A stretch of 43,033 bases of DNA. It comes from an uncultured Pseudomonadota bacterium (GTDB lineage: Bacteria; Pseudomonadota; Alphaproteobacteria; Rs-D84). The translations under genes were made by a program, and so were the position numbers. Location: NCBI GenBank assembly GCA_947165335.1, contig CAMVAB010000002.1, positions 1-43,033 of the forward strand, written 5' to 3'. The notes under the pieces are model-generated. The model was not told the DNA's origin and made no database searches. It saw only the letters and a program-made list of their open reading frames with translations. This document shows, one piece after another, positions 11,056 through 41,932 of this stretch (position 1 is the stretch's first letter; each line of letters opens with the position of its first letter).

Positions 11056-11064
11056 ACACGCCCC

Positions 11065-11982
11065 CTACATTTTATTTATCATGACATCAGCAAAAGATCC
11101 CGGAATCGGATTATCGGATCCGCGATATGTCGTTTTTTGAAAGAAAGCACCGCTTGTTACTTCGTCAAAAGTTTTTTGATCAAAAGGTTTATTTTGATAT
11201 CCCCACCATAATGCGTGCGTTGGATCTTGGGCAACATGTGGCATCTTATCAAAATATTTTTTCGCGCGTTTATCATTCATAACCAAAGTCTTGAACAATA
11301 ATTGGTGCATAAAATAATCGAAAGTATGATTCTCATGGATCCAGTAATCAAGTATCATCGCGCGCCATGCAGCCAAAAGATATGCGCCCTTTCTTGCACG
11401 AATGAAACAATTTTGCATGAAAGAATATGGGCTGCCACCAATATTATAATTATCCCCGGTTAAATAAACAAAGAAATCTTCTTTCTCTATCCAGTCTGGA
11501 ATCGGCGCAGTTACAAATCCGGTTGAATCAAGCCAATATCCACCATGTCTGTATAACAATTCAACACGACAAATATCTGCAAAATGTGCATGCCCTATTT
11601 TACCGTCTTTGTATTTTTGAATTATTTCTTTTGGCAATGATATATAATCAAAAACAGTATTTGCGTCCAACACAATCAGTTCTTGTTTACAATGACGGCG
11701 CACACTGCGATAACATGCCTTTACTAATGCAGGCGCCTTATCTTCACCTTGAAGCCATATTGTGAAAATTTTATCGCTTTTATCATCTTTAACAGGTTTG
11801 GTTTCAGGAACATCACTAACAGTCTTTAAATATCTTTTAAAATATTTTGTAACAACCTTTGCAGTTAAATCCGTTCTGATTTTGCGTCGCTCTATTCGAG
11901 ATTTCCAAAACGGATTTAATATATGTCCGAATAAAATTATTCTAAACAGTGCAAAACTTCGTGCTATTTTCACTGAAACCAC
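11065..11982 (-). CDS. Capsular polysaccharide synthesis (Caps_synth-type) glycosyltransferase
   Basis: IFTIWLQGEDKAPALVKACYRSVRRHC ... KDGKIGHAHFADICRVELLYRHGGYWLDST matches the Caps_synth signature. The start is uncertain: GTG at 11982, only 12 nt after the recA stop. Confidence 0.6.
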   Translation of the reverse strand: MVSVKIARSFALFRIILFGHILNPFWKSRIERRKIRTDLTAKVVTKYFKRYLKTVSDVPETKPVKDDKSDKIFTIWLQGEDKAPALVKACYRSVRRHCKQELIVLDANTVFDYISLPKEIIQKYKDGKIGHAHFADICRVELLYRHGGYWLDSTGFVTAPIPDWIEKEDFFVYLTGDNYNIGGSPYSFMQNCFIRARKGAYLLAAWRAMILDYWIHENHTFDYFMHQLLFKTLVMNDKRAKKYFDKMPHVAQDPTHALWWGYQNKPFDQKTFDEVTSGAFFQKTTYRGSDNPIPGSFADVMINKM

Positions 11983-19514: not shown

Positions 19515-19544
19515 AAAAAAAGCCGGCAAATGCCGGCTTTTTTA
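19515..19544. terminator. Bidirectional rho-independent terminator (GCCGGCAAATGCCGGC core)
   Basis: A7-GCCGGCAAATGCCGGC-T6 between convergent mnmE and acyl-CoA ligase 1. Confidence 0.75.
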
Positions 19545-21122
19545 TTCTTTTCTATCAGGATATTTACCATCTATCAAATTCTTTCGAACAAGATGATGTT
19601 TTACTTTTTGTGTGCTTGTCATTGGTAAATCTTCTGTTGTCATCGCAAAGTGCGTCACCCATTTATATGAAGCAACTTTCTTGTTTTGATTTGCGATTTC
19701 AGCAGCTAATTTTTCAATTGTCATTTCAGGCGATACTTGAAACACACCATAAGCAACAGTTTTATCACCAACTTTGTGTTCAAATACAGCAACATTTTTG
19801 ACACCTTCGATTTCGATGAATAAACCTTCCAATTCATCTGGATAAACATTTTTACCAGAATCTAAAACAATCACTTGTTTTTTACGTCCAGCAAAATGTA
19901 ATTCGCCATTTTTATCCATATACATCATATCGCCAGTATTAAACCAACCGTCTTGATCAAAAACTTCGTTGTTTACTTCTGGATTATTCAAATATCCGTT
20001 AAACACCTGGTGTCCACGAACCCATAATGTCCCAACACCATTTTCATCTTTGTTACGAATATCACATTCATTATTAGATGTTGGTGCACCAATAGAATAA
20101 GGTAATCTTTTGTTTGTTGGTTTAGAAATACAGATTGGTCCAACTGTTTCTGTTAAACCATAACCTTGAATAAAAGCAAGCCCGAGTGATTCATAAAAGT
20201 TTTCAACCTCCGGTTTTGTTGCAGCACCACCAGCGATTAACAATCTTGCACGACCACCAAATACTGTAAGCAACGGTTCTTGGACTTTGCGAACAAAGAA
20301 ATCTAATCCCATATCTTTTAATGTTTTTTGGTTTTTCAAAATAAATGATGCGACACGCCATTTGTTTTGTTCTTTCATAGTTGCAACAATTTTATTACGG
20401 AACAATTCCCAAACACGTGGTACCGCAGGTATAACATGTGGTTGGAATTTTTTGAAATCATCCAATATATATTTTGGGTTAACTGTTGGTTGTAAAACAA
20501 GTGATGCACCATAATGAACAGTTGCTAGAATACCGATAGCAAAACCAAAGATATGGTACAAAGGCAAAAACCCATACATCACATCACCGGAATGAAAATA
20601 TTCAGACATATCTTCCAATGAATTTGCACATTCTGTTAAATTAAAATGTGTTAACGGAACAACCTTTGGTGTCCCTGTTGATCCGGATGTAAAAGACAAT
20701 GTTGCAATATCTGTTGATTCAGACGGATATGCCCTTAAATCATAATCTATATCGCCATCTTTTTTGGTAATGTCATAAAATTTAAATTTGTCCGTTTTAT
20801 AAAAGAACGAAGGTTCAGCACAAACAAATTTACATCCGGCAATTTCACACATTTTGTCATATTCAAGTGCCGTAAGATTTGTATCTAACATTAAAACTGT
20901 TCCACCTAAATACCATACAGCAAACAAAGTTAATGGAAATTGTGGTAAATTATGAGATAAAACCCCGACAACATCGCCATGTTTTATTCCCATTTTATTC
21001 AATGTCGACGCGCGCGCGCGCACCTGATCCAAGAACGCGGAATACGTTATGTTTTCTCTAGCCAAGAAAACAACTTCTGGCCATTGGGCAACTGCATTTT
21101 CCAATTTTTGATACATATTCAT
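19542..21122 (-). CDS. AMP-dependent long-chain acyl-CoA synthetase/ligase (COG1022-type), paralog 1
   Basis: TSGSTGTPKVVPLTH, QGYGLTETVGP, GWFNTGD, GRKKQVIVLDSGKNVYPDELE. The start is set at MNMYQ (21122) by alignment with the two paralogs. The tracked ORF extends 12 codons further. Confidence 0.8.
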   Translation of the reverse strand: MNMYQKLENAVAQWPEVVFLARENITYSAFLDQVRARASTLNKMGIKHGDVVGVLSHNLPQFPLTLFAVWYLGGTVLMLDTNLTALEYDKMCEIAGCKFVCAEPSFFYKTDKFKFYDITKKDGDIDYDLRAYPSESTDIATLSFTSGSTGTPKVVPLTHFNLTECANSLEDMSEYFHSGDVMYGFLPLYHIFGFAIGILATVHYGASLVLQPTVNPKYILDDFKKFQPHVIPAVPRVWELFRNKIVATMKEQNKWRVASFILKNQKTLKDMGLDFFVRKVQEPLLTVFGGRARLLIAGGAATKPEVENFYESLGLAFIQGYGLTETVGPICISKPTNKRLPYSIGAPTSNNECDIRNKDENGVGTLWVRGHQVFNGYLNNPEVNNEVFDQDGWFNTGDMMYMDKNGELHFAGRKKQVIVLDSGKNVYPDELEGLFIEIEGVKNVAVFEHKVGDKTVAYGVFQVSPEMTIEKLAAEIANQNKKVASYKWVTHFAMTTEDLPMTSTQKVKHHLVRKNLIDGKYPDRKE

Positions 21123-21184
21123 ATTAAACCTACCTTTCTTTATTCCATCGCTCGGCACTTTCGTGGCCGGCGACGAACTATATT

Positions 21185-22765
21185 TTATTCATGTCTTAAT
21201 GTATACTTTCCATCTATTAACCATTGATGAACAACGTGATGTTTGATCTTCTGGGTGCTTGTCACTGGCAAATCATCTGTTGTCATTGCAAAATGTGTCA
21301 CCCATTTGTATGACGCAACTTTTTTATTTGCGTTCGCAACTTCTGCAGCTAATTTTTCAAGTGTCATACCTTCTTCAACACTGAATACACCGTATGCAAC
21401 TGTTTTGCTACCTATTTCATGTTCAAACACAGCGACACTTTTTACGCCTGGGATTTCAATGAACAATCCTTCCAATTCGTCAGGATAAACATTTTTACCT
21501 GAATCCAAAACAATCACTTGTTTTTTACGTCCAGCAAAATGTAATTCGCCATTTTTATCCATAGACACCAAATCACCTGTACAGAACCAACCTTCTTTAT
21601 CAAAAGATTCTTTGTTGGCTTCTTCATTGTTCAAATAACCATTTAATATTTGGTTTCCACGAACCCACAACATGCCTATTCCAGATTCGTCTTTGTTGCG
21701 AATTTGTATTTCTGTATCACCCATTGGTGCACCAAACGCGTATGGAACACGTTTTTTGAGCGGTCTTGAACAACAGATTGGTCCAACAGTTTCTGTCATA
21801 CCGTATCCTTGAACAAAAGCCATCCCCAGTTGAGTATAGAATTTTTCAACTTCTGGTTTTGTTGCAGCGCCCCCAGCAACCAGCAATCTTGCACGACCAC
21901 CGAACACAGCACGAATTTGATTCAAAACTTTATCAACCAATTTACTAAGTCCGATCTTACGCAACCAATTTTGATTGTTCATAACGAATGATACAATACC
22001 CCATTTTTTCTTTGCTTTAATTCCGTCAATAATCTTTTTACGGAATATTTCCCACAACTTTGGCACAGCAGGTATAACCTGAGGTTTATATTGTGCAAAA
22101 TCTGCCATAATTGCATTTGGATTTATTGTTGATTGCAACAATATCCCCATACCAAAATGAAGTGGTGCTAAAAATCCTACTGCAAAACCAAACACGTGGT
22201 ACAGAGGTAAAAATGCATAGAACATTTCACCCGGTTTTAACCATTGATTCAAATATTCTAAATTATCAGAACAAGAAATCAAATTAAAGTGTGTTAACGG
22301 CACAACTTTTGGAGTTCCTGTTGATCCAGATGTGAAAGACATAGTTGCAATATCACTATCTTTTAATGGGTATGCTTTTAAAGATTTATCTACTTTGTCA
22401 TCTTTAGTTTCTATATCAAAAAATTCAAAATTTTTTGTTTTATAGAAAAACGATTTTTCAGCGCACACATATTTGCAACCAGTAATTTTTGTCATATTAT
22501 CGTATTCAATAGCGGTTAAATTTGTATCCAACAATAAAACCTTGCCACCCAAGAACCATATTGCAAACATAGTTATTGGAAATTGTGGTAAATTATGCGA
22601 TAACACACCAACAACATCACCTGCCTTTACCCCCAATTTATGCAAAGTCGTTGCACGTGCTTTTACTAAATCTACAAAATCTTTAAAATTTACATTTTCG
22701 CGAACCAAAAATATGGTTTCTGGATTTCTTTTAACATTTTTTTCTAACAATTGATACATGTTCAT
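21185..22765 (-). CDS. AMP-dependent long-chain acyl-CoA synthetase/ligase, paralog 2
   Basis: Same motif set. 526 aa, collinear with paralogs 1 and 3 over the full length. Confidence 0.8.
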   Translation of the reverse strand: MNMYQLLEKNVKRNPETIFLVRENVNFKDFVDLVKARATTLHKLGVKAGDVVGVLSHNLPQFPITMFAIWFLGGKVLLLDTNLTAIEYDNMTKITGCKYVCAEKSFFYKTKNFEFFDIETKDDKVDKSLKAYPLKDSDIATMSFTSGSTGTPKVVPLTHFNLISCSDNLEYLNQWLKPGEMFYAFLPLYHVFGFAVGFLAPLHFGMGILLQSTINPNAIMADFAQYKPQVIPAVPKLWEIFRKKIIDGIKAKKKWGIVSFVMNNQNWLRKIGLSKLVDKVLNQIRAVFGGRARLLVAGGAATKPEVEKFYTQLGMAFVQGYGMTETVGPICCSRPLKKRVPYAFGAPMGDTEIQIRNKDESGIGMLWVRGNQILNGYLNNEEANKESFDKEGWFCTGDLVSMDKNGELHFAGRKKQVIVLDSGKNVYPDELEGLFIEIPGVKSVAVFEHEIGSKTVAYGVFSVEEGMTLEKLAAEVANANKKVASYKWVTHFAMTTDDLPVTSTQKIKHHVVHQWLIDGKYTLRHE

Positions 22766-22794
22766 AATTTTATCCTTATATCTATTACAACAAA

Positions 22795-24375
22795 TTATTC
22801 ATGTTTATTTGTGTACTTACCATCTATCAGATTTTGACGAACAGCATGATGTTTTACCTTTTGTGTACTGGTCATAGGCAAATCATCAGTTGTCATTGCA
22901 AAATGTGTTACCCATTTATATGAAGCAACTTTCTTGTTTTGATTTGCAACTTCTTTTGCTAATTTTTCAATCGTCATATCTTTATCAACACTAAATACAC
23001 CATATGTAACAGTTTTATCTTTAACCTTGTGTTCAAACACAGCGACATTTTTCACACCTTCAATTTCCATGAAAAGCGCTTCAAGTTCATCTGGATAAAC
23101 ATTTTTACCAGAATCTAAAACAATCACTTGTTTTTTACGTCCAGCAAAATGATATTGTTTATATTTATCCATGTATACTAAATCGCCAGTGTTAAACCAA
23201 CCGTCTTTATCAAAAGAATCTTTATTTGCTTCTTTGTTATTAAGATATCCTTTGAAAACGTTTGGTCCACGAACCCATAATGTTCCAACACCTGTTTCAT
23301 CCATATCCCTGATTGTGCATTCAGAACATCCAATGGGAGTTCCAAAAGCGAACGGCACACGATGTTTTGACGGTCTTGAACAACAAAATGGTCCAACTGT
23401 TTCGGTCATACCATATCCTTGAACAAAAGTTATACCCAAAGATTCATAGAAACTTTCAACTTCTGGTTTTGTTGCTGCCCCACCCGCAATCATTAAATTG
23501 ACACGGCCACCAAAAATATCTTGTAATGGTTTTTGAATTTTCTTAACCAGCCATCCAAAACCAATTTTTTTCAAGAACTTTTGATTTTTAAGAACAAATG
23601 ACACAAACCACCACATATGTTTTTCTTTGATACCTTCTATAATCTTGTTACGAAAAACTTCGTAAAGACGTGGCACCGCAGGAATACAGTGTGGTTTATA
23701 AGTTTTGAAATCATCCAAAATATTTCTTGGGTTAATCGTTGGCTGCAACAAAATACCCATATGAAAATGCAATGGTGCCAAAATTCCAGCAGCAAAACCA
23801 AATATGTGATAAAGTGGCAAAAATCCATACATAACTTCGTTTTTATGTATCCATTTTCCCATATCTTCATAGTATTCTGATGAACTTATCAAATTGCCAT
23901 GCGTCAATGGAACAACTTTTGGATTGCCAGTTGACCCAGATGTAAACGACAATGTCGCAATATCTTTTTCGGTTAATTTTGCAGGTTTTAATTTCGCATC
24001 TGCCGCCCCATCTTTTGTTTCAATATCAAAGAATTTGAAACCCTTTGATTTATAAAAGAAAGATTTCTCAGCACATACCAATTTGCACTTAACCGTTTTG
24101 GTCATGTTATCGTATTCAAAAGGTGTTAAATTTGTATCCAACAACAAAACTGTACCACCCAAATACCATATCGCGAAAAGAGTCAGTGGAAATTCAGGAA
24201 TATTGTGTGACAATAAACCAACCACATCCCCAGCTTTTACACCAATTTTATGTAAAGTTGTTGCCCGTGCTTGAATCAAAGACAACGCTTTTTTGAAACT
24301 GATTTTTTCGCGTACCAAAAACAAAGCATCTGGTGATTCTTTCACCACTTGCTTTAACACTTGATACATGTTCAT
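22795..24375 (-). CDS. AMP-dependent long-chain acyl-CoA synthetase/ligase, paralog 3
   Basis: Same motif set (TSGSTGNPKVVPLTH, QGYGMTETVGP, GWFNTGD, GRKKQVIVLDSGKNVYPDELE). 526 aa. Confidence 0.8.
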   Translation of the reverse strand: MNMYQVLKQVVKESPDALFLVREKISFKKALSLIQARATTLHKIGVKAGDVVGLLSHNIPEFPLTLFAIWYLGGTVLLLDTNLTPFEYDNMTKTVKCKLVCAEKSFFYKSKGFKFFDIETKDGAADAKLKPAKLTEKDIATLSFTSGSTGNPKVVPLTHGNLISSSEYYEDMGKWIHKNEVMYGFLPLYHIFGFAAGILAPLHFHMGILLQPTINPRNILDDFKTYKPHCIPAVPRLYEVFRNKIIEGIKEKHMWWFVSFVLKNQKFLKKIGFGWLVKKIQKPLQDIFGGRVNLMIAGGAATKPEVESFYESLGITFVQGYGMTETVGPFCCSRPSKHRVPFAFGTPIGCSECTIRDMDETGVGTLWVRGPNVFKGYLNNKEANKDSFDKDGWFNTGDLVYMDKYKQYHFAGRKKQVIVLDSGKNVYPDELEALFMEIEGVKNVAVFEHKVKDKTVTYGVFSVDKDMTIEKLAKEVANQNKKVASYKWVTHFAMTTDDLPMTSTQKVKHHAVRQNLIDGKYTNKHE

Positions 24376-31162: not shown

Positions 31163-31294
31163 ACTACGAAGATACATAATTAGAAAAATCATAAAAACGG
31201 TGTTTTTTAATACGCTTTTTTATAGATTTTTATTATTGCGTATCAAGGCACCACCTTATCCCCATTTTGTGTTTATACATTTTTATGATATAAT
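31163..31294 (+). repeat. Duplicated promoter/leader module, copy 1 (includes TTGTGT-16-TGATATAAT promoter)
   Basis: About 125 of 132 nt are identical to 31819-31950. It contains -35 TTGTGT (31267-31272) and extended -10 TGATATAAT (31286-31294), then AAAGGAGAG RBS and the ATG at 31321. Confidence 0.8.
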
Positions 31295-31818: not shown

Positions 31819-31950
31819 ACTACGAATATACATAATTAGAAAAATCATAAAAACGGAGTTTTTTAATACGAGTTTTTATAGATTTTTATTATTGCGTATC
31901 AAGGCACCACCTTATCCCCATTTTGTGTTTATACAATTTTGTGATACAAT
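31819..31950 (+). repeat. Duplicated promoter/leader module, copy 2
   Basis: Near-identical to 31163-31294. The -10 region is TGTGATACAAT. It precedes the ATG at 31982. Confidence 0.8.
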
Positions 31951-32790: not shown

Positions 32791-34203
32791 TTATCTTTGT
32801 TTTTGCTTAATACCACCAAACACAAAACTTATTTCAGTACCTTTTATTACTGTACCATCTGTGCGGTGTTGATCGTAAAAACCTTCTAATACAACTTCAT
32901 TTGGTTCTACCGTATCGCTCGTTGCTTTGCTTTTACGAGCAGGAGCGCAATAAACATTGTTTAAACCAGTTGTTAAGTTTTCTTCTTCACCATAATACAA
33001 AGGCGACGATACGGCTATTGACATATTTTCGTTACTTGCATCATCTCTTGAAGTATAAAATTTAACATCTGAAGAAAGTGGCGATACTTCACGAACCCCC
33101 GAAAAATTATTATGGATTTTATTATATATACCCCATACATTTTCTGGTAAATCAGACTGGTAATTTTCAACATAAAATTCAATCTGTTGTGTGTTACGAT
33201 TTGTGATTACTTTCACCGTATACCAATTATTGAAAGGCATTGTCAAAGTATCAGCAACAGTTCCATGAGATAATGTTGCCGCGGCAGAATCTGTTTGAAA
33301 TACACGCAATCCAACCCCAACAATTCCACCATAAGAATGCGGACTGTCTGTATTATCTGTTGGCATCACAGATACATATGCCGTTCCTTTAAAATTCATT
33401 GGATCGGATGGCGTTTGTAAAACTTTGCTGTCCACACCACCAAAATAAGGGAAAGTTTCGTGTTTACTTGGTTCGCCCTTGACAGGTGTCGATCCTTGAA
33501 CCAAACCAAAATCGGCATGTCTTAAACCAATTTTATTTCCTTTTGAAGACATTCCTATTGTATCTATTTCAAACTTCCATCGACCATTACCGTCTATGAT
33601 AGCTTGATAAATATGTTGTACATGACCTGCATCAGCATTTATAGATTCAAGATGATCTTTGGCCTTTTTTGCCAACGCACTGTCTGACATATTTTCAAAC
33701 TCCAAATGATACAGAGCATCAGAAACACCTTCTATTTTCCAGTCTTCTCTTGGATCAGGGAAACAACCCCCAACATAAAAACTCCATCCTTCCGCTCTAA
33801 AGAAAGCCGTACCATCTTCAGATGAAACATTGACGCGTCCAAGATATTCTTCGGTATCGTTGGAATAATCCAAAGTTTCTGAATCTTCGTCATTTAATTC
33901 AAAACTATAAAGACCTTCGATTCTATTTGATACAGCATAAGGTCTGATCATACAATCTCCACCAACAAAAAATTTCGAACCATTAATATCAGACAAATGT
34001 GTCATAAACAAATCGTTCGATTGGGTTTGGTTATTAACATCAGCATATTGGCCAGTTGGCATATTTTTATCGTTGACTTGCATTTCTGGTTCCATAGCAT
34101 CTTTACATGCGGTCATTCCGCCCATTAAACCAGCCAACAAAAAAACTTTTGCGTTTTTTATATGATTTGAATATAAATTCTTAAAAAATGGATTTGTTTT
34201 CAT
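32791..34203 (-). CDS. Large lipoprotein (470 aa), possibly a TbpB/fHbp-like surface lipoprotein
   Basis: Lipobox GGMTAC. Internal ...ADFGLVQGS...FPYFGGVD...PMNFKGTAYVSV and C-terminal ...VLEGFYDQH...GTEISFVFGGIKQKQR loosely resemble the beta-barrel signatures of TbpB/fHbp-type lipoproteins. This is a weak, by-eye assignment. Confidence 0.35.
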   Translation of the reverse strand: MKTNPFFKNLYSNHIKNAKVFLLAGLMGGMTACKDAMEPEMQVNDKNMPTGQYADVNNQTQSNDLFMTHLSDINGSKFFVGGDCMIRPYAVSNRIEGLYSFELNDEDSETLDYSNDTEEYLGRVNVSSEDGTAFFRAEGWSFYVGGCFPDPREDWKIEGVSDALYHLEFENMSDSALAKKAKDHLESINADAGHVQHIYQAIIDGNGRWKFEIDTIGMSSKGNKIGLRHADFGLVQGSTPVKGEPSKHETFPYFGGVDSKVLQTPSDPMNFKGTAYVSVMPTDNTDSPHSYGGIVGVGLRVFQTDSAAATLSHGTVADTLTMPFNNWYTVKVITNRNTQQIEFYVENYQSDLPENVWGIYNKIHNNFSGVREVSPLSSDVKFYTSRDDASNENMSIAVSSPLYYGEEENLTTGLNNVYCAPARKSKATSDTVEPNEVVLEGFYDQHRTDGTVIKGTEISFVFGGIKQKQR

Positions 34204-34273: not shown

Positions 34274-34300
34274 AAAAAAACACCGGGGATTCCGGTGTTT
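34274..34300 (-). terminator. Rho-independent terminator ending the lol-containing operon
   Basis: Minus strand reads AAACACCGG-aatcc-CCGGTGTTTTTTT, 12 nt after the stop of CDS 34312..34599. Confidence 0.7.
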
Positions 34301-34311
34301 AATACAAAGCA

Positions 34312-34599
34312 TTATTTCATTGGTGGAAAACAATTATTTCCGCCATCTGGGCAACAAACCATCCAACCATCACCTGCATCAGTATAAACTTCGCCAGCAC
34401 AACAACCATTTTTATCTGGTCTGTTTCCGTCTGGACATTTAACAAAAAAACCATCCCAATTTATCACTAAATAATGCGCAACATACCCAAACGATCCACC
34501 AAGAATAAAAGCGGCCAAAACAAACATCCATAATTTAGATTTTGGCGATGATTTTTGTTTAATTGGTTTCTTCACGATTTTCTTTTTCATATGTCCCAC
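34312..34599 (-). CDS. Small membrane-anchored Cys-rich protein (95 aa)
   Basis: Lys-rich N-terminus, one TM helix (LWMFVLAAFILGGSFGYVAHYLV), then KCPDGNRPDKNGCCAGEVYTDAGDGWMVCCPDGGNNCF. The start abuts the upstream stop. Confidence 0.5.
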   Translation of the reverse strand: MGHMKKKIVKKPIKQKSSPKSKLWMFVLAAFILGGSFGYVAHYLVINWDGFFVKCPDGNRPDKNGCCAGEVYTDAGDGWMVCCPDGGNNCFPPMK

Positions 34600-35244
34600 C
34601 TATTCTTCAATTATTTTTTCTAACTGAATTATAAAGTCAATTGCAGGATTAGTCAATTTTTTTGCTTTTTCAATCATACGTTCTGCCTCTGCCTGCATTT
34701 GAAGACGTTTATATGTTTCAACAATTTCAATTGATTCTTCTTCATCATCCAAGTTATCATCAGTTAATGCACGTGCAATTTCTAATTCTTGTTTTGCCAT
34801 TTCTTTATATTTACCAGAATTTTCAGGGCATCCACGTTCTGACAAATTCGCATATATTTTTGCATTATCGATATGATCTTCTGAATCTTGTGATTCCACC
34901 GGTCTTAATCTTTCCTGCAAAAGCATCTCGATTTGCCCACACGTTGTTTCTGGTAATTTTTTTTCTTCAATTTTTGGTTGTGGTTTGGGTTCTTCAAAAA
35001 CCCTGTTTAAACAATTTTCAGAATAAACTTTGTTCAATTGCGCGATCAAATCCGGCTGTTGATTTGTTGCTGCCATCATAATTTTATTTGCTAATTCATG
35101 ACACTGATATTGTGTCATTGTTGAATGGTTTACTCGATCAGAACCATTTAATATAAAACCAACAACCATACCCATTAAAAACAGGATAACCAAACCAACA
35201 ATACCGTATACGGAATATCTTTTTTTATTTTCTTGTTTTGTCAT
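34600..35244 (-). CDS. Membrane-anchored, acidic coiled-coil-like protein (214 aa)
   Basis: One N-terminal TM helix (VYGIVGLVILFLMGMVVGFIL) followed by a charged helical region. No domain recognised. Confidence 0.5.
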   Translation of the reverse strand: MTKQENKKRYSVYGIVGLVILFLMGMVVGFILNGSDRVNHSTMTQYQCHELANKIMMAATNQQPDLIAQLNKVYSENCLNRVFEEPKPQPKIEEKKLPETTCGQIEMLLQERLRPVESQDSEDHIDNAKIYANLSERGCPENSGKYKEMAKQELEIARALTDDNLDDEEESIEIVETYKRLQMQAEAERMIEKAKKLTNPAIDFIIQLEKIIEE

Positions 35245-35266
35245 TTCTCTCTCCTTTTTATTTTTA

Positions 35267-35977
35267 TTATTTTACTATACCATCTTTGATGGTAATAATT
35301 CTATCTGCTTTTTTTGCCAAATTCATATCATGCGTCACAAATAACATTGACATTTTGTTTTTACGAACCAAACTAAGCAACAAATCAAAAACAGTTATTG
35401 CGTTTTGCGGATCCAAAGATCCAGTTGGTTCATCCGCCAATAATATTTCAGGATTATTTGCAATTGCGCGTGCAATTGCGACACGTTGTTGTTCACCCCC
35501 AGACATTTCAGATGGGAAATGATTGCACCGGTGTGCAACATTTGCCGCTTTTAATAATTTCATAGCCCGACTATTTGCAACACTTTCATCCATACCATTT
35601 GCCAACATTGGCAACACTACATTTTCAAGCGCGGTAAAATCAGAAAGCAGATTATGTTTTTGATAAACGAAACCTATTTTTTGACGACGCAACATTGTAC
35701 GTGTTTCTTCACTGATTTTATCAACAGGCATTCCATTTATAAATATATCCCCACCTGTTGGTTTATCAAGCAATCCCACACATTGTAATAATGTAGATTT
35801 TCCAGAACCACTTTGTCCAACAAGTGCGACTATTTCACCGCGATACAAATCAAAACCACCACCACGTAAAATCTTTAATGGTTGACCACCTTCGACAAAT
35901 GTTTTTTTAATATCACGAACAGACATCACTATGTCTTTTCTCGATATTTTTGATAAAGAATTCAAAATACTTGCCAT
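35267..35977 (-). CDS. lolD: Lipoprotein-releasing system ATP-binding protein LolD
   Basis: GQSGSGKSTLL (Walker A), LSGGEQQRVAIARA, LLADEPTGSLD (Walker B). It lies directly downstream of the LolC/E permease gene. The start could instead be the internal MSVRDIKK at 35926. Confidence 0.85.
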   Translation of the reverse strand: MASILNSLSKISRKDIVMSVRDIKKTFVEGGQPLKILRGGGFDLYRGEIVALVGQSGSGKSTLLQCVGLLDKPTGGDIFINGMPVDKISEETRTMLRRQKIGFVYQKHNLLSDFTALENVVLPMLANGMDESVANSRAMKLLKAANVAHRCNHFPSEMSGGEQQRVAIARAIANNPEILLADEPTGSLDPQNAITVFDLLLSLVRKNKMSMLFVTHDMNLAKKADRIITIKDGIVK

Positions 35978-35986
35978 AGTTTTTCC

Positions 35987-37243
35987 TTATTCATTACGAA
36001 GTGTTTCAACCGGATCTGTGTTCGCTGCACGCCATGCCGGGTATAGCGTTGCCAAAAAAGCCAGCGCAATCGCAATTATTGCAATACTGATTACTGTAGA
36101 AGGCACCAATTTTGATGGTAATTCTGATAACGAATACAATTGTGCCGGGAACAAATCACGCCCAGTAACAAATTGGAAAAATTTACGAATTGGTTCGATA
36201 TATATTGCCATCACAACACCAATAAATGTTCCAAATACTGCACCAATAATACCAATGCTTGTGCCAGCCAATATAAATATTTTCATCATAGATTTGCGTG
36301 ATACACCAAAAGTACGCAAAACTGCGATATCTTTATTTTTATCTTTAACCAACATAACAAGTGATGAAATTATATTAAATGCAGCAACGATAACTATTAA
36401 CAACAATATTAAAAACATCACACTTGATTCAACCTGAAGAGCGCCAACAAAACCACGATTTAAATCGCGCCAATCACGAATAACAAAACCGTCAGGCAAC
36501 AAAGCATCCAATGCACGAACAACTGTTTCACTTTGTTCTGCATCAGTTAAAAATAAATCAATATGGGTAACACTGTTATCTATATTCAAATATTTTTGAG
36601 CGCTGTCCAGCGGCATAAATATATAACCGTTATCATATTCATACATTCCCATAAAGAACGAAGAAACAACAGGATACGCCATTATACGCGGCATTGTTCC
36701 AAACGGAGTTGCTGTTCCACCATTTGCAGCAATCAATGAAACTTTGTCCCCATTTGTCACATGCAAATTACGTGCAAGTGACGAACCAATTATCAATTCA
36801 TCATCTTTGACTTTGTCTAAACTTTTTCCATATATGCGCGTTCCTGTATTAGTCTTGGCAATTAAATCAGGCATTCTTATTCCACGAACCATTGCGCCTG
36901 AATTATTTCCATTCGCAGATGCCATTATTTGACCTTCGGCAATTGGGACAATCGAAGTTGTGTATTTTGCAACCACTTTATTTTGACGCATTTTGTCGAT
37001 TAAGAAATCATAATCAGAAATTGTTCCGGCCTGGTGGTAAACAACAACATGACCGTTCATGCCAATTATACGCGACAGCAATGTATCATGAAAACCGCCC
37101 ATCACGGACATAACAACAATCAAAGTTGCGACGCCCAACATAATACCAATCAGCGAAACCCAAGAAACAACAGAACCAAAGCCACGTTTTTTCGCGGCCA
37201 TGTATCTGAATGCTATCTTTTTTTCTAATCTTGAAAACAACAT
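35987..37243 (-). CDS. Lipoprotein-releasing ABC transporter permease, LolC/E family
   Basis: FRYMAAKKRGFGSVVSWVSLIGIMLGVATLIVVMSVMGGFHDTLLSRIIGMNGHVVV parallels the E. coli LolC N-terminus. A large periplasmic loop and C-terminal FtsX-type TM bundle are present. 418 aa. Confidence 0.85.
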   Translation of the reverse strand: MLFSRLEKKIAFRYMAAKKRGFGSVVSWVSLIGIMLGVATLIVVMSVMGGFHDTLLSRIIGMNGHVVVYHQAGTISDYDFLIDKMRQNKVVAKYTTSIVPIAEGQIMASANGNNSGAMVRGIRMPDLIAKTNTGTRIYGKSLDKVKDDELIIGSSLARNLHVTNGDKVSLIAANGGTATPFGTMPRIMAYPVVSSFFMGMYEYDNGYIFMPLDSAQKYLNIDNSVTHIDLFLTDAEQSETVVRALDALLPDGFVIRDWRDLNRGFVGALQVESSVMFLILLLIVIVAAFNIISSLVMLVKDKNKDIAVLRTFGVSRKSMMKIFILAGTSIGIIGAVFGTFIGVVMAIYIEPIRKFFQFVTGRDLFPAQLYSLSELPSKLVPSTVISIAIIAIALAFLATLYPAWRAANTDPVETLRNE

Positions 37244-37259
37244 TTTTATTTCCGTTTAT

Positions 37260-38594
37260 TTATTCATTTAAAAAATCACGCAATGCATCACCTGATAGCG
37301 GTGTCATTTTTTTAACACTGTCTGTATCCACGATAGAAATCAAACGTGGCGACATAAACACAACCAATTCTGCAAAAGGTGATATCAGTGTTTCGGGTGT
37401 TGTTACAAACGAATGTGTTGGTATACCAATAATCACATAATTATCACCAACATTAGATGGGATTTTGAACGAAGACAATTCGCCATTGCTTGTGCTTAAT
37501 ACAATCTTAGCATCTATCTTTTTGTATCCACCATAATTGCCGTACGTTCCCGTTGCACCAATAATCAAATCTGTTTCAAGACGGTCTTCTTTGCCACATT
37601 GACCGATATCAAAACGCGATTGCCATCCGTTTGGAATTGCAAATGTTCCCTGGGAAATCAAAACCATGCTGGCTTGCTGAGAAATAAATTCTTGTAATGT
37701 TTTTGTATTTATTTCAGGACTTACTACTAATGCACGTCCAACGACACCCGGTATAGACATATGAATATTATTTTCACCAAATGCTGGCAACATATTCATC
37801 CAAACAATTGCATCATCTGCTTTTGGATAAACACGATATACATCTATATCCCACGCTAAAACATATTTTTTAGACGCGACATCAGAAATAATTTTTGAAA
37901 CTTCGCGTTCGGTCTGATAATCGCCTTCGAAAACAACTGTTTTATCCTTCCAATTTACTAATAAATTATGGATATCAGCGCCACGCATAGCGTCCAACAT
38001 CGCCATAATTATAGTTTCATCTTTTGGCATTTTTATCATCCATTTACCATGGCCAGTTAAATGAATTTCACCAAATTCAGCATCATACGAATAATAAACA
38101 CGCCCCAGTTTCGCCATTAATTCAACAGCATCTGTCAAAGAACTCGTAGAAATAGATCCTGAAATTTTTTCAAAAGTTGCCTGATCTTCAATCACAGAAA
38201 TATCAGTGTCTTCCAATAATTTTTCAAGTGCGTCTTTTACATACATCTTTTTGAATTCATAATCAGAAACTTTCAAATCTGGCAACGCATCGCCTGTATT
38301 AAGGCGAACTATTTCTATCTTTTCTTCTGGAACGACTGAAACGACACTTTGATTATCCCAATCAACCGTACATCTTTTTGGTAAATCCAGCGCAAAATGT
38401 TGAACTGTATCAGTAGTTAACGCTGCTTTTTTTGGGAAAATAGGCACTGAATTTTCATCTATGACCCTATTTTCAACAACATTCACTGTGTCATATTGTT
38501 GTATGTTTCTGTTCATGTCAGTACATCCCGCAATACCCAAGGAACAAAATCCAACCAATATAAAAATTGCGTTTTTTATGTAATTTTGTGCCAT
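37260..38594 (-). CDS. Lipoprotein with divergent secretin-like architecture (N0/N1-like modules + secretin-like C-terminus)
   Basis: Lipobox LGIAGC. FKKMYVKDALEKLLEDTDISVIEDQ...LTDAVELMAKLGRVYYSYD is N0/STN-like. MLDAMRGADIHNLLVNWKDKTVVFEGDYQTEREVSKIISDV is N1-like. LAWDIDVYRV, LQEFISQQASMVLISQGTFAIPNGWQSRFDIG, VGDNYVIIGIP and ELVVFMSPRLI parallel secretin (PF00263-type) blocks. The canonical vPlLgdiPvlG block is not evident. It sits 16 nt upstream of lolC/E. Confidence 0.4.
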   Translation of the reverse strand: MAQNYIKNAIFILVGFCSLGIAGCTDMNRNIQQYDTVNVVENRVIDENSVPIFPKKAALTTDTVQHFALDLPKRCTVDWDNQSVVSVVPEEKIEIVRLNTGDALPDLKVSDYEFKKMYVKDALEKLLEDTDISVIEDQATFEKISGSISTSSLTDAVELMAKLGRVYYSYDAEFGEIHLTGHGKWMIKMPKDETIIMAMLDAMRGADIHNLLVNWKDKTVVFEGDYQTEREVSKIISDVASKKYVLAWDIDVYRVYPKADDAIVWMNMLPAFGENNIHMSIPGVVGRALVVSPEINTKTLQEFISQQASMVLISQGTFAIPNGWQSRFDIGQCGKEDRLETDLIIGATGTYGNYGGYKKIDAKIVLSTSNGELSSFKIPSNVGDNYVIIGIPTHSFVTTPETLISPFAELVVFMSPRLISIVDTDSVKKMTPLSGDALRDFLNE

Positions 38595-38630
38595 TTCCTT
38601 TCCTTTTTTTATTTCTTTAATCTATTTATA

Positions 38631-38954
38631 CTAAATATTCATAACTTTTTCAAACTCTTCTAGCGTCATTTCATAAATAGGTTTTTGATTAGGCGTAGTA
38701 AGATTTTTTACCTTTTCAAACTGTTTTTCAAACAAATCCATCATAGATTGAATTTCGTCTGGGATCATTTCACCCGACTTTTTTAACCTGTTCCCATATT
38801 CTACAACATATTCTAAAACATCAGCGGCAAAAAAGCGGCCGACATAATTTTCTATTGCAATTCCGCCCTTTTCAACACATATAGCAGACAAAACAGTGGC
38901 CATTTCATTATAAAAATTTGCTAATTTTACATAATTTTGAACAGACAGTGCCAT
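38631..38954 (-). CDS. Hypothetical cytoplasmic helical protein (107 aa)
   Basis: ORF with an AGGAGAAAAC RBS region. No signal peptide or recognised domain. First gene of the same-strand block. Confidence 0.45.
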   Translation of the reverse strand: MALSVQNYVKLANFYNEMATVLSAICVEKGGIAIENYVGRFFAADVLEYVVEYGNRLKKSGEMIPDEIQSMMDLFEKQFEKVKNLTTPNQKPIYEMTLEEFEKVMNI

Positions 38955-38994
38955 GGTGTTTTCTCCTTATCCTTTTGATACATTATAAAAACTA

Positions 38995-39023
38995 TTGCCA
39001 CGGGAACGCAATTAAATTATAAT
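38995..39023 (+). promoter_or_regulatory. Near-consensus sigma-70 promoter, likely giving a leaderless mRNA
   Basis: TTGCCA (38995-39000), a 17-nt spacer, TATAAT (39018-39023). The ATG at 39032 is only 8 nt after the -10 and has no SD. Confidence 0.45.
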
Positions 39024-39031
39024 AATAAATT

Positions 39032-39412
39032 ATGAGAATGAAATATTTATTTTTTGTACTGGCTCTATCGGCATGCGCATCTGCAAATCGTGGTTCGATT
39101 GACGACGCTACAATATTAAATTGGGAAAATGACGCTGTAACAACCGAACAGTTTATTCGCGACCATAAATCGTGCCTTGGGATAAAAGATAAAAATTATG
39201 TTCCAAGATCAAGAATAGCTAAATTATTATCCCCAAACCAAAGTGCACAAATGCCTGATTGGGATGGTCTTTGGGTGACATTTCAATCTAATGAATACAA
39301 AGATGTCGGTCAGCGCGCTCTGCTTTCTGTGCCACCTAACACTGCTTCTAAATCGGTTGGATATTATCGCAAATGTATGTTAAGACGCGGTTATTTACTT
39401 CGTGCAAAATAA
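39032..39412 (+). CDS. Small lipoprotein (126 aa)
   Basis: Signal peptide with lipobox LALSAC. No domain recognised. Confidence 0.55.
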   Translation: MRMKYLFFVLALSACASANRGSIDDATILNWENDAVTTEQFIRDHKSCLGIKDKNYVPRSRIAKLLSPNQSAQMPDWDGLWVTFQSNEYKDVGQRALLSVPPNTASKSVGYYRKCMLRRGYLLRAK

Positions 39413-39461: not shown

Positions 39462-40151
39462 ATGAAAAAATCCTTGTTCTTTTGGTTGTATTTTATTGTG
39501 TCAATTATATTGGCGGTTTATTTCGCGGCTCGTATTATAACAAGTCAAATGGGGCGCGGCCCTGTTTCATACGTAAAACATATTTCAATTATCAGCGATT
39601 CGAAGGATGCAGATCTTGAATCTGTTAAAATGGCGATTGGTATTACAAATGGAACTAATATAAAATCCGTAGATTTACACCAAATTAACAAACGTATTAT
39701 GAACGTACCGGGCATTAAGAACGCATCTACGCGTCGTTTAGCAAATGGTGATATTATTGTGAAAACCCAGCAACACAAAATTGCCGCCCAGTGGAGTGAC
39801 GGTGTAAATTTTTATCCGTTATCATTAGACGGTGTAAAAATAGATAAACCGACTAGTGAACGCAATTCAAACACCATTGTTTTTCAAGGCATAGTCCCTG
39901 GCAATCTTGACGAAATTATAAATGGATTAACACCTATTTCTAAATATATAGATTATGTAAATATGGTTGAATCAAGACGTTGGAATATTCATACAATAAA
40001 CGGAACTGTAATTTATTTACCAGAAGACAATCTATCAATTGCCGTAAACAAGATAAATGTATTAAATCAAACGCACAAAATATTATCACGACAAATTGAT
40101 ATTATAGATATGCGCGATAATGCAAGAATTTTAGTAAAAACAAAGAAATGA
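39462..40151 (+). CDS. ftsQ: Cell division protein FtsQ (POTRA-containing)
   Basis: N-terminal TM anchor (LFFWLYFIVSIILAVYFAA), then a POTRA-like segment (VKHISIISDS...VDLHQINKRIMNVPGIKNASTRRLANGDIIVKTQQHK). Its position immediately upstream of an ftsA-like gene, with an ATGA overlap, supports the call. Confidence 0.7.
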   Translation: MKKSLFFWLYFIVSIILAVYFAARIITSQMGRGPVSYVKHISIISDSKDADLESVKMAIGITNGTNIKSVDLHQINKRIMNVPGIKNASTRRLANGDIIVKTQQHKIAAQWSDGVNFYPLSLDGVKIDKPTSERNSNTIVFQGIVPGNLDEIINGLTPISKYIDYVNMVESRRWNIHTINGTVIYLPEDNLSIAVNKINVLNQTHKILSRQIDIIDMRDNARILVKTKK

Positions 40152-41932
40152 AACTTTCTAATTCGTCATTTTTATGTTTAGACATTGGAACATATGGCGT
40201 GCGTGGATTTGCACACTGTGTGCGCGATGCGCGTATTACACAATCTGCAATGCATTTTGTAAAAAACACAAACACTATATTTGCGTTAAGAAAAACAACA
40301 GACGAATTAGAACAACAATTAAAAACTCATTTTAATTATATTTTTGTGACTGGTAATTTTGGTATGTCAGATTTCAGAACGGTATCTGACACAATGTTAT
40401 GGAATGACGAACATAAAATAACGGAACTTGATTTACGACATCAAATCGCAAAAATACCATCATTAAAAGATTTTTATGCAATGCATATTATTCCTGTTTT
40501 TTACGGAACACCAAAAGTAAAAAATATTGGAAACACTCCGATTGGACACATTGATACACAATTAAAATCTATATTCAGTGTAATATCCTATGAAGAAGAT
40601 AAAACCAGATATATATCTGATATATTACGGCGCGCACATATCCAAGCCAGTGGTTTTCTTGATCCAACTTTTTTACAAAATTTAATTTACAGAAAACAAG
40701 ATGAAAAGGTTTTGTTTTTAGATTTGGGACACGAATATACAACTGTATCCATATGGACAAATCGTGGACCATTGTATTTTAATAAAATAAAATTTGGTGG
40801 CCGCGATATAACGAACGCTATTTCAATCGGATTGCAAATTGGTGTAAATGACGCAGATACATTAAAAGTAGCAGTATCAAGCGCTGTTCCAAACGAAATG
40901 GACAGATTTACACCTGCGGATTCATCCGAAAAATTTGCATCTTTTTCTGTTTCAGATATAAACGATATATTTATTCCAAAATTGAAAGAATTATTAAACA
41001 TTGTTTTTGATCAATCACAAAAATATATCGAACAATATAAACCTGAAAAAATAATTTTGACAGGCGGTGGCGCAACAATAAAAAATATAAACGAATTAAT
41101 TGAAAAACATTTCAAACTGCCGGTGGAAAATCTCGGGGACAGTGCATCTATAAACGCATTATCAGAACACATATGGAATAACAATCTTGATGAACGCAAT
41201 GCGTATATTCAAAAGCAACAAAAGATTGAAAATTTAATTAAAAAAATAACAAAAATTTTCCATCGTAACAAAAGTTCAAAAAAGAAGAAATTCATTCCAA
41301 TTTTACCAAGCACTCTGTGTTTTGATATGTCTGATATGACAACATACACAATGTTTGCCAGTGCCGGAATATCTATGATACACGTTGATATAATGGACGG
41401 TTTTTATGTTAATAAAATTGCCGGCGGCATTAAAGAATTATCACAAATAAGATCAAAAACGGGCGCACATTTACATGTTCACTTGATGACCGAAAGCCCA
41501 TCTGTTTGGGCGCGTGACGCTGTAAATGCTGGGGCCGATACTGTTATAATTTCAACAAATACTTCTGGTGTCAGAGATGCAATTAAAATTGTAAAAAATG
41601 CCGGGAAACGTTGTGGTATCGCATTAAATCCTGATTCAAACATTGAAATATTAATTCCTATATTAAAACAAATTGATGAAATTATGGTTATGGCTGTTAA
41701 TCCTGGGGCTGCCGGCCAAGAATTTGATGAAAACGTCATTCAAAAAATCAAATCATTAAATTACACACGTAAAAAACACGGGCTTAAATATGTGATAAGT
41801 GTTGATGGTGGTATAAATCCTGATACGGCAAAACAATGTTGGAATGCTGGCGCTGATTTATTAATAAGTGGTTCCTACCTTGCAAAAGCACCTGATTTTG
41901 ATTTGGCAGTACAAAGTTTATTGAAGCACTAA
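40148..41932 (+). CDS. In-frame fusion: FtsA-like actin-fold protein (aa 1-~382) + ribulose-phosphate 3-epimerase-like domain (aa 383-594)
   Basis: FtsA part: LCLDIGTYGV, VLFLDLGHEYTTVSIW, KFGGRDITNAIS, IILTGGGATIKNINELIE, and an amphipathic tail IENLIKKITKIFHRNK. Rpe part from nt 41294: ILPSTLCFDM, MIHVDIMDGFYV, HVHLM, MAVNPGAAGQEF, SVDGGIN, LISGSYL. There is no stop and no ATG/GTG/TTG at the junction. Confidence 0.6.
   Translation: MKLSNSSFLCLDIGTYGVRGFAHCVRDARITQSAMHFVKNTNTIFALRKTTDELEQQLKTHFNYIFVTGNFGMSDFRTVSDTMLWNDEHKITELDLRHQIAKIPSLKDFYAMHIIPVFYGTPKVKNIGNTPIGHIDTQLKSIFSVISYEEDKTRYISDILRRAHIQASGFLDPTFLQNLIYRKQDEKVLFLDLGHEYTTVSIWTNRGPLYFNKIKFGGRDITNAISIGLQIGVNDADTLKVAVSSAVPNEMDRFTPADSSEKFASFSVSDINDIFIPKLKELLNIVFDQSQKYIEQYKPEKIILTGGGATIKNINELIEKHFKLPVENLGDSASINALSEHIWNNNLDERNAYIQKQQKIENLIKKITKIFHRNKSSKKKKFIPILPSTLCFDMSDMTTYTMFASAGISMIHVDIMDGFYVNKIAGGIKELSQIRSKTGAHLHVHLMTESPSVWARDAVNAGADTVIISTNTSGVRDAIKIVKNAGKRCGIALNPDSNIEILIPILKQIDEIMVMAVNPGAAGQEFDENVIQKIKSLNYTRKKHGLKYVISVDGGINPDTAKQCWNAGADLLISGSYLAKAPDFDLAVQSLLKH

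Follow-up and report, generated by a model that had tools for sequence, protein, structure and literature searches.

A divergent, shortened lipoprotein secretin beside lolCE-lolD in uncultured Alphaproteobacteria and a candidate gene module around it

What is a secretin-like lipoprotein doing directly ahead of the genes for a lipoprotein-releasing ATP-binding cassette (ABC) transporter? The question is raised by a row of six minus-strand genes in a 43,033-nt stretch of DNA (hereafter, the window; gene-row coordinates are positions in this whole stretch) from an uncultured alphaproteobacterium (contig CAMVAB010000002.1 of assembly GCA_947165335.1). The row encodes, in order, a 107-aa protein (p107), a 444-aa lipoprotein (hereafter, SEC), the permease LolCE, the ATPase LolD, a 214-aa protein (p214), and a 95-aa protein (p95). 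An earlier note on this DNA had read the 444-aa protein as a divergent secretin and had proposed that the six genes form one dedicated lipoprotein-export module. Our analysis supports the first proposal and argues against the second. We favor, with a probability of roughly 0.55, the interpretation that SEC is an orphan, shortened lipoprotein secretin that serves a module of three other genes (X, Y, and Z) and that is joined, in an apparent operon, to the housekeeping lolCD genes.

Homology of SEC to secretins

37260-38594, minus strand: SEC, the 444-aa lipoprotein; divergent, shortened secretin of the type IVb pilus (BfpB/PilN-like) lineage, predicted to reside in the outer membrane

Direct searches with the 444-aa query yielded zero matches in Pfam, NCBIfam, PHROGs, and the PDB sequences. 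The secretin family PF00263 gave nothing at E ≤1 on the SEC of the window and nothing at E ≤0.1 on 34 family members, none of the NCBIfam secretin models (including TIGR02520) matched SEC, and a profile built from the 34 members had no match among PDB sequences. An exhaustive phmmer search of SEC against 1.84e9 representative proteins returned only 113 relatives. The weakest of the long relatives (566-744 aa, plus one of 475 aa; E 2e-7 to 7e-4) bear PF00263, three of them together with STN, and their best NCBIfam models are MshL, PilN, and GspD. When the SEC family alignment (A1) was compared with five PF00263-bearing secretins (A2) using hhalign, the two aligned with 99.9% probability (E = 1.2e-32) over 325 columns (query 88-426), spanning the N0-like region through the C-terminal ELVVFMSPRLI strand. 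This string and two others quoted in the earlier note, LAWDIDVYRV and VGDNYVIIGIP, are all present in the SEC translation.

The AlphaFold2 (AF2) model of SEC, computed with the family alignment, has a predicted local distance difference test (pLDDT) score of 87.2 and a predicted template-modeling (pTM) score of 0.77. All seven Foldseek matches of this model to the PDB at E ≤1e-3 are secretins, with BfpB ranked first (9u5s, E = 3.8e-10), then PilQ, InvG, EpsD, and a secretin of a type II secretion system (T2SS); the XcpQ N0-N1-N2 crystal structures (4e9j, 5mp2, 5ngi) follow at E 1.5e-3 to 1e-2. Among the viral models of BFVD there was one significant, unnamed match, and f1 pIV was found at E = 0.016. 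A tblastn search of plasmids matched a Rhodoferax plasmid protein annotated as ‘type II and III secretion system protein’. Judged by profile alignment and predicted fold, SEC is a divergent, remote homolog of secretins. The nearest canonical secretins have BfpB as their best solved relative (E = 1e-24), and their loci show the order secretin-small protein-T2SSE-T2SSF, which is type IV pilus-like. The best reading of these sequence and model comparisons is that SEC derives from type IVb-like pilus lipoprotein secretins of the BfpB/PilN kind.

Domain order and the shortened secretin domain

38523-38534, minus strand: lipobox I-A-G-C (residues 21-24), with Cys24 as the predicted acylation site and Thr at +2, from the translation
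38055-38342, minus strand: N0-like (STN-like) periplasmic domain, residues ~85-180 (AF2, Foldseek, hhalign)
37869-38048, minus strand: N3-like ring-building domain (beta-alpha-beta-beta-alpha), residues ~183-242 (AF2, hhalign)
37329-37865, minus strand: shortened secretin domain, residues ~244-422, with Cys333 (hhalign, AF2)

The lipobox cysteine is invariant in a 12-member alignment (A3), and a lipobox-like motif that satisfies a strict pattern is present in 75 of the 89 family members linked to lolCD and in 40 of the 57 linked to gene Z. In the model, Cys24 is followed by a disordered linker, short helices (residues 60-74), and the N0-like domain. The hhalign comparison places the N0-like region on the N-terminal part of STN-bearing secretins and the N3-like domain on the stretch immediately before the canonical secretin domain; weak STN and Secretin_N Pfam matches occur in 3 of 34 family members. 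SEC therefore carries N0 and N1/N3-type ring-building domains ahead of its secretin domain. The ‘N0/N1-like modules’ of the earlier note hold for the N0-like domain, whereas the second domain is modeled as N3-like.

The secretin domain of SEC spans ~177 aa, whereas that of BfpB and the closest canonical secretins has ~250 aa, a difference of ~70 aa. Relative to canonical secretins, it shows three deletions of 21, 22, and 19 residues (hhalign; BfpB and GspD alignments), which we take, from the general layout of secretin structures rather than from coordinates, to be gate 1, gate 2, and the membrane-associated loop. The first deletion turns the long hairpin after the ‘F-x-V-G’ strand into a short turn, GQC(333)GKED, and the third takes out the stretch with the canonical VPxLGDIPxxGxLF-type motif. 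Neither full-length periplasmic gate hairpins nor a motif of this type is found in SEC. The long strands of the domain are modeled at pLDDT >90. Cys333 is invariant among family members (151/151) and Cys75, which lies in the segment preceding N0, nearly so (150/151), and neither residue occurs in five canonical outgroup secretins. It is reasonable to infer from this pattern a family-specific disulfide between Cys75 and Cys333 at the truncated gate.

A conserved gene module around SEC

To place SEC in context, ~160 loci were compared: 80 Enterousia-like genome loci (the best-named homologs of the window belong to Candidatus Enterousia and uncultured gut Alphaproteobacteria), six looked-up contigs, 72 metagenome loci, and MT835708.1. 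Reading covered ≤43 kb per genome, with ±8 kb flanks for the 80 related genome loci; most loci were screened for module genes only, full gene lists were compiled for six annotated distant loci, and open reading frames (ORFs) were listed in stretches of L096 and L148. The SEC family is narrow (at 50% identity, ~113 clusters). Records that name a taxon usually give Alphaproteobacteria, and the samples are mostly from gut or rumen. The source-named records are uncultured metagenome-assembled genomes or metagenome contigs, except for a distant relative on a plasmid of Erythrobacter aureus.

We found a conserved gene order, HTH-X-Y-SEC-Z, in L084-L087, ~55 metagenome loci, and MT835708.1. The first of these genes encodes a regulator with two HTH_3 (helix-turn-helix) domains of the CI/LexA-like kind and a weak S24-like C-terminal part, and it is the first module gene wherever upstream sequence suffices outside Enterousia. 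The products of X and Y are acidic and soluble, with conserved ends and variable low-complexity middles. Z is predicted to cross the inner membrane once, through a single transmembrane helix, and has a disordered tail in the cytoplasm and a conserved ~95-aa periplasmic domain containing two invariant cysteines. A model of Z from 28 homologs (pLDDT 80.8 overall, mostly >90 from residue 101) gives this domain a beta-alpha-alpha-beta topology. The Z profile had no match in the PDB, and Foldseek with the periplasmic model returned nothing significant; because the weak matches (best E = 0.54) include several LysM-containing proteins, a peptidoglycan-binding role for Z is a hint only. More generally, Z, p107/Y, X, p214, and p95 had no match in Pfam, NCBIfam, PHROG, or PDB searches, profile searches of the 107-, 214-, and 95-aa proteins included, and their database relatives are all named hypothetical.

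Candidate relationships of Z were also rejected. Its model showed no significant Foldseek match and none of the N0-like kind that would be expected of a BfpG/TcpQ-like N0-fold partner; hhalign linked it to p214 with a probability of 18% through the transmembrane helix only and was negative for p95; and the comparison with the small proteins encoded after canonical secretins in pilus clusters was negative as well.

In the flanks examined, no SEC family locus showed a gene for a pilus ATPase, platform protein, or pilin, and the gene lists of the six distant loci and the ORFs listed for L096 and L148 contained no T2SS, type III secretion system (T3SS), or pilus gene. The same holds for the window, where the earlier note had seen none and where Pfam scans of the ~39 larger ORFs agree; the nearest pilus-like match there is a weak actin-fold PilM_2 score on FtsA. 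We found no publication describing the SEC family or its gene arrangement. On the best reading, SEC is the predicted outer-membrane member of the HTH-X-Y-SEC-Z module. We tentatively suggest, at somewhat less than even odds, that this module constitutes an undescribed envelope system with an orphan secretin at its core and no dependence on a type IV filament or on a T2SS or T3SS motor.

A phage or plasmid origin of the module was considered and rejected, PHROGs matching the HTH regulator only. MT835708.1 (L162), a record from human feces labeled ‘UNVERIFIED: Bacteriophage sp.’, carries four VirB6-like genes followed by HTH, X, Y, SEC, and Z; by its gene content it looks like a mislabeled, ordinary Z-type locus from a bacterial chromosome rather than a phage.

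Arrays of two to four large VirB6/TrbL-like paralogs lie directly upstream of HTH in ~19 Z-type loci, and one of these proteins (u673 of L085) scores 26.0 bits on PF04610 against a cutoff of 25.9. The arrays are reminiscent of the rvhB6 arrays of Rickettsiales. The mapped tandem arrays are:

L084, 1-6159: VirB6/TrbL-like tandem array
L085, 1-4012: VirB6/TrbL-like tandem array
L086, 2-5796: VirB6/TrbL-like tandem array
L162, 2207-10078: VirB6/TrbL-like tandem array

The distant relative from Erythrobacter aureus YH-07 is WP_115418396.1, a hypothetical protein of 377 aa encoded on plasmid NZ_CP031358.1 (L163, 8686-9819). It aligns to the SEC family with 98.4% probability in hhalign (E = 8.5e-15), covering N0, N3, and the first half of the secretin domain, and the preceding gene encodes a 1304-aa hypothetical protein. 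As a cultured carrier, E. aureus is a possible experimental handle.

Linkage of SEC to lolCE-lolD

38631-38954, minus strand: p107, 107-aa ORF, small soluble helical protein
35987-37243, minus strand: lolCE (418 aa), LolF-type single permease of the lipoprotein-releasing ABC transporter (TIGR02212; MacB_PCD + FtsX)
35267-35977, minus strand: lolD (236 aa), ABC ATPase (best NCBIfam model TIGR02211; Pfam ABC_tran)
34600-35244, minus strand: p214, acidic helical protein with an N-terminal membrane anchor and conserved Cys motifs
34312-34599, minus strand: p95, membrane-anchored protein with one six-Cys domain
34278-34300, minus strand: intrinsic-terminator-like hairpin (9-bp G+C-rich stem) and T run at the end of the gene row
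38955-39031, unstranded: divergent 77-bp intergenic region between p107 and a conserved lipoprotein gene (39032-39412), the likely promoter region for both

The six ORFs and the five intergenic distances (36, 16, 9, 22, and 0 nt, from coordinates) are as given in the earlier note, and a single terminator-like hairpin closes the row. Its identification of the transporter genes was also correct: the 418-aa protein scores 414 bits on TIGR02212 (cutoff 362), and TIGR02211, although under its cutoff on the 236-aa protein (261 bits against 308), is the best match for the ATPase. The 16-nt gap between SEC and lolCE contains a GGAA ribosome-binding-like motif and no terminator-like hairpin, which in sequence terms is compatible with co-transcription; the other minus-strand terminator-like matches are weak and all inside lolCE.

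Promoter-like sites in the region are not enriched (34 vs 30 ± 5 in shuffles). The best match (TTGACT-17-TATAAT, 11/12 positions, 34656-34628, minus strand) is located in the 3' end of p214 just upstream of p95, and p95 may therefore also be transcribed independently. The p95 ORF starts with GTG and has an in-frame ATG 9 nt downstream. In the 77-bp intergenic region, a plus-strand site (38995-39023) matches at 11/12 positions, and a minus-strand TTGCGT-17-TATAAT-like match was seen by eye and is absent from the scan output.

The order p107-SEC-lolCE-lolD-p214-p95 of the window is conserved among the 80 Enterousia-like loci (70-85% identity). All 80 have p107, SEC, and lolCE, whereas lolD is found in 77/80, p214 in 72/80, and p95 in 71/80, with some of the loci truncated by contig ends. 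A different picture emerged from the wider comparison, in which the gene after SEC is Z in 57 loci and lolCE-lolD in 89 loci plus L082, and the two never occur together. The Z-linked loci represent 11 of ~17 family clusters at 70% identity and have no lolCD beside SEC. In a neighbor-joining tree (members collapsed at 70% identity, rooted with canonical secretins), all members linked to lolCD fall into a single clade that lies among the Z-linked clades, showing that the linkage arose once. The SEC-lolCD linkage claimed in the earlier note is therefore real in one clade, down to 35-44% SEC identity, whereas most lineages have the Z module instead.

One apparent exception in this clade is L081, where a transposase-like fragment (2072-2753; motif RGKRGRGATGKTPVFG, by eye ISXO2/IS1595-like) directly follows SEC, so that the missing lolCE is no counter-example. 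Upstream of SEC, the lolCD clade shows a stepwise shrinkage from HTH-X-Y-SEC (L083, L108, L112, L148) through HTH-147 aa-SEC (L082) to p107-SEC (Enterousia). A second lolCE was found neither in the window nor within 8 kb to either side in the 80 related genome loci.

In L018, an additional gene for a 252-aa soluble protein (10576-11334) is inserted between lolCE and lolD, overlapping both, and equal spacing is seen in L038, L048, L057, and L061. An identity of this protein as LolA was rejected, as it had no PHROG match and its N-terminus shows no signal peptide by eye.

The small proteins of the row differ in their history. Residues 3-57 of p107 align to residues 301-355 of a Y protein from the lolCD clade (L083_Y406; blastp, E = 1e-7), and p107 also matches the 147-aa protein of L082 (L082_a147; E = 1.5e-4). 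tblastn with p107 recovered the gene upstream of SEC in 80/80 Enterousia-like loci, and L083_Y406 matched the p107 position in 75 of them. Cys26, Tyr37, and Asp45 are invariant in the p107 alignment (A7), and its database relatives (782 clusters) are every one named hypothetical. By these alignments, p107 is a remnant of module gene Y that corresponds to its conserved C-terminal domain. For p214 and p95, on the other hand, matches were confined to the Enterousia-like loci. Identity of p214 across 72 Enterousia-like loci is 29-68%, and L018 carries a p214 paralog downstream. The p95 domain has the pattern C-x9-CC-x~12-CC-x6-C with CFPP at its end, and p95 relatives (75-283 aa) have a signal peptide or transmembrane helix and one or two copies of the six-Cys domain.

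The switch from Z to lolCD in one clade, the p107 remnant, and the restriction of p214 and p95 to the Enterousia-like loci indicate that the six-gene row is composite and not one machine. The best reading is a composite operon comprising a p107 + SEC remnant, the housekeeping Lol transporter, and two Cys-rich envelope proteins seen in the Enterousia-like loci only. The proposal of the earlier note that all six genes form a dedicated lipoprotein-export module is not supported, given the Z module in most lineages, the single origin of the lolCD linkage, and the descent of p107 from Y.

Two lipoprotein genes border the row. The 470-aa lipoprotein encoded downstream (32791-34203, minus strand), likened to TbpB/fHbp in the earlier note, had no Pfam, NCBIfam, or PHROG match and no tblastn match in the 80 related loci; it is, by these searches, strain-specific and outside the conserved block. 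On the other side, across the 77-bp spacer, a divergent gene (39032-39412, plus strand) encodes a 126-aa lipoprotein with the lipobox LSAC. It is found in 79/80 related loci at 72-93% identity, with one match of 66% cut by a contig end, and is better conserved than p107, p214, and p95; it has no family match and is absent from non-Enterousia loci.

Proposed mechanism and alternative explanations

Established knowledge of lipoproteins and secretins suggests that SEC would be exported by Sec and acylated at Cys24, would then travel to the outer membrane via LolCDE and LolA like any lipoprotein, and would there form an outer-membrane-attached ring through its N0/N3 ring-building domains and secretin beta-sheets. 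SEC is predicted to be a Lol substrate itself. In place of the gate hairpin, the ring would have a short turn with Cys333, probably disulfide-bonded to Cys75, and may thus be gate-less or plugged in a new way. It would serve the X/Y/Z module and not the outer-membrane end of the Lol pathway, and the fusion to lolCD would mean co-expression only.

Several observations weigh against this interpretation. SEC was modeled as a single chain, so that its assembly into a ring or channel, in secretins a double beta-barrel of 12-17 subunits, is presumed. The Foldseek TM-scores of the model against secretin protomers are low (0.14-0.24), indicating that the match is domain-by-domain and not whole-chain, and the orphan status of SEC rests on windows of ≤43 kb per genome rather than on whole genomes. 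Above all, none of the intact loci of the clade (90 in number) has lost the SEC-lolCE-lolD block, while the flanks changed; the block persists down to 35% SEC and 45% LolCE identity, and its first junction, a 16-nt gap in the window, is an 8-nt overlap in L082. Persistent gene adjacency often signals functional coupling, and the loss of Z, the presumed inner-membrane partner, from the locus coincides exactly with the arrival of lolCD.

The tight block and the loss of Z would be expected if the SEC of the lolCD clade worked with LolCDE, as an outer-membrane receptor, insertase, or surface-export pore that replaces LolB or adds a surface-exposure step. There are precedents for parts of such a route: T2SS secretins bring the lipoproteins PulA and InvL to the cell surface, with GspN (PMC12802150), and the Aat system combines a LolCDE-like ABC transporter with a TolC-like outer-membrane channel (PMC7943197). 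However, the linkage has a single origin and 11 of ~17 clusters keep SEC without lolCD, lolCE is an ordinary equivalog (TIGR02212 above cutoff) and no specialized paralog, the SEC model has no LolA- or LolB-like fold in Foldseek, and the block is conserved without p214, p95, and the 470-aa lipoprotein. The earlier note had regarded the outer-membrane end of the Lol route as open in this lineage. That argument is weakened by Caulobacter LolA, which performs both LolA and LolB functions (PMC9963962), so that a missing LolB leaves no obvious gap; moreover, the lack of LolB is general, whereas the SEC family is confined to a narrow lineage. We place a Lol role for SEC between unlikely and very unlikely. 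Its most specific form, in which an apparently gate-less SEC of the Enterousia-side clade exchanged Z for LolCDE and opened a dedicated trans-envelope route by which acylated proteins pass from LolCDE, via LolA or directly, to an outer-membrane pore to be inserted or displayed on the surface, is very unlikely. A secretin of the HTH-X-Y-SEC-Z module seems likelier than a secretin-based end of the Lol pathway.

SEC might also have ceased to be a pore and act as a ring or scaffold protein of the envelope, or as a sensor whose STN/N0-type domain signals via Z, X, and Y to the double-HTH regulator, with the Enterousia locus as a remnant; TonB-dependent transducers that signal to FecR-type proteins are an analog. 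The leading position of the HTH regulator, the Z architecture of a cytoplasmic tail, one transmembrane helix, and a small periplasmic domain, the loss of ~70 residues (including the stretch aligned to the canonical gate hairpin and the VPxLGDIP-type motif), and the weak STN matches in some members all point in this direction. Nevertheless, the rest of the secretin domain is well conserved, with long strands modeled at pLDDT >90, which argues for a retained beta-sheet assembly, X and Y have no family matches and nothing ties either to signaling, and the Z domain fold had weak LysM-like matches and none that was significant. A sensor or scaffold function is, on balance, unlikely. The adjoining VirB6-like arrays, with L085 u673 at the PF04610 cutoff, raise the further option that SEC assists, at the outer membrane, a type IV secretion system (T4SS) of the Rickettsiales (rvh-like) kind. 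Known T4SS, however, use VirB7/9/10 and not secretins, the VirB6-like genes are lacking in all lolCD-type loci, the window included, and in several of the Z type, and the flanks showed no further VirB gene, making this the least probable explanation of all.

Other features of the window

Beyond the gene row, the window (G+C content ~35%) encodes housekeeping functions by Pfam: recA, ruvC, mnmE, typA, uvrB, tsaE, ftsQ, ftsA, glycosyltransferases, and three AMP-binding enzymes. The last are tandem paralogs (acyl/aryl-CoA ligase-type, 526-538 aa) at 19542-24375 on the minus strand. Directly after ftsQ, a 594-aa ORF (40148-41932, plus strand) fuses an FtsA-like domain of actin fold (PF14450, ~177-335) to a complete ribulose-phosphate 3-epimerase (Rpe; PF00834, 387-578). 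Of the 67 related genome loci with this ORF, most matched the fusion over its full length (46-78% identity); several Z-type loci gave a match to the Rpe part only.

A 132-nt direct repeat (31163-31294 and 31819-31950; 95% identical, 656 nt apart) resembles, by its placement in the sequence, a promoter or leader that has been duplicated. A gene for a 105-aa Cys-rich lipoprotein starts 27 nt beyond the end of one copy, and the other copy lies in the 5' end of a Zn_ribbon_2 ORF, upstream of an internal ATG that is possibly the true start.

Significance and comparison with known systems

SEC is carried by a poorly known group of Alphaproteobacteria with small genomes, most of them from gut samples of animals and humans. 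A SEC family without motor genes in the examined loci would show a new use of the secretin scaffold. Should the lolCD fusion be functional, which we regard as a minority possibility, it would bear on the routes of lipoproteins to the outer membrane or cell surface in bacteria without LolB.

Compared to the lipoprotein transport systems, the locus has ordinary components in a new setting. The lolCE and lolD genes of the window are ordinary members of the LolCDE-LolA(-LolB) pathway, SEC lacks the fold of LolA or LolB, and we know of no described Lol system with a secretin. In lipoprotein export through T2SS and GspN a complete T2SS is present, unlike at the SEC locus, and Aat has a specialized LolCDE paralog, a TolC-like channel, and an acyltransferase, in contrast to the housekeeping LolCD only at the SEC locus.

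The closest resemblance is to the lipoprotein secretins that are a hallmark of type IVb pili, in which BfpB has the order lipidated LG linker-N0-N3-secretin without an S domain (PMC12531336). SEC has an N-terminal lipobox like BfpB, PilN (R64), and TcpC, and its modeled order (lipidated linker, N0, N3, secretin, no S domain) follows that of BfpB, its best fold match. It differs from these proteins in that its examined loci have no pilus ATPase, platform, or pilin genes and no BfpG/TcpQ-type partner by sequence-family matches, in having HTH, X, Y, and Z as neighbors, in the lack of a direct TIGR02520 or PF00263 match, and in a secretin domain that is ~70 aa shorter, with a replaced gate-hairpin region and the invariant Cys75/Cys333 pair. 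With GspD, InvG, PilQ, and pIV, SEC shares a homology that is remote yet significant and extends over N0, N3, and the secretin domain, and its ELVVFMSPRLI string is the counterpart of the canonical ELxxFxxPxII C-terminal strand. Unlike these canonical secretins, SEC is 444 aa long (compared to 550-750 aa), is predicted to be lipidated and not pilotin-dependent, and has no cognate inner-membrane machinery nearby. To our knowledge, the only established role of secretins is that of an outer-membrane gate, in T2SS, T3SS, type IV pili, and filamentous phages, to which slime secretion has recently been added. As an orphan, shortened lipoprotein secretin with conserved partner genes of its own, SEC would be new among secretins.

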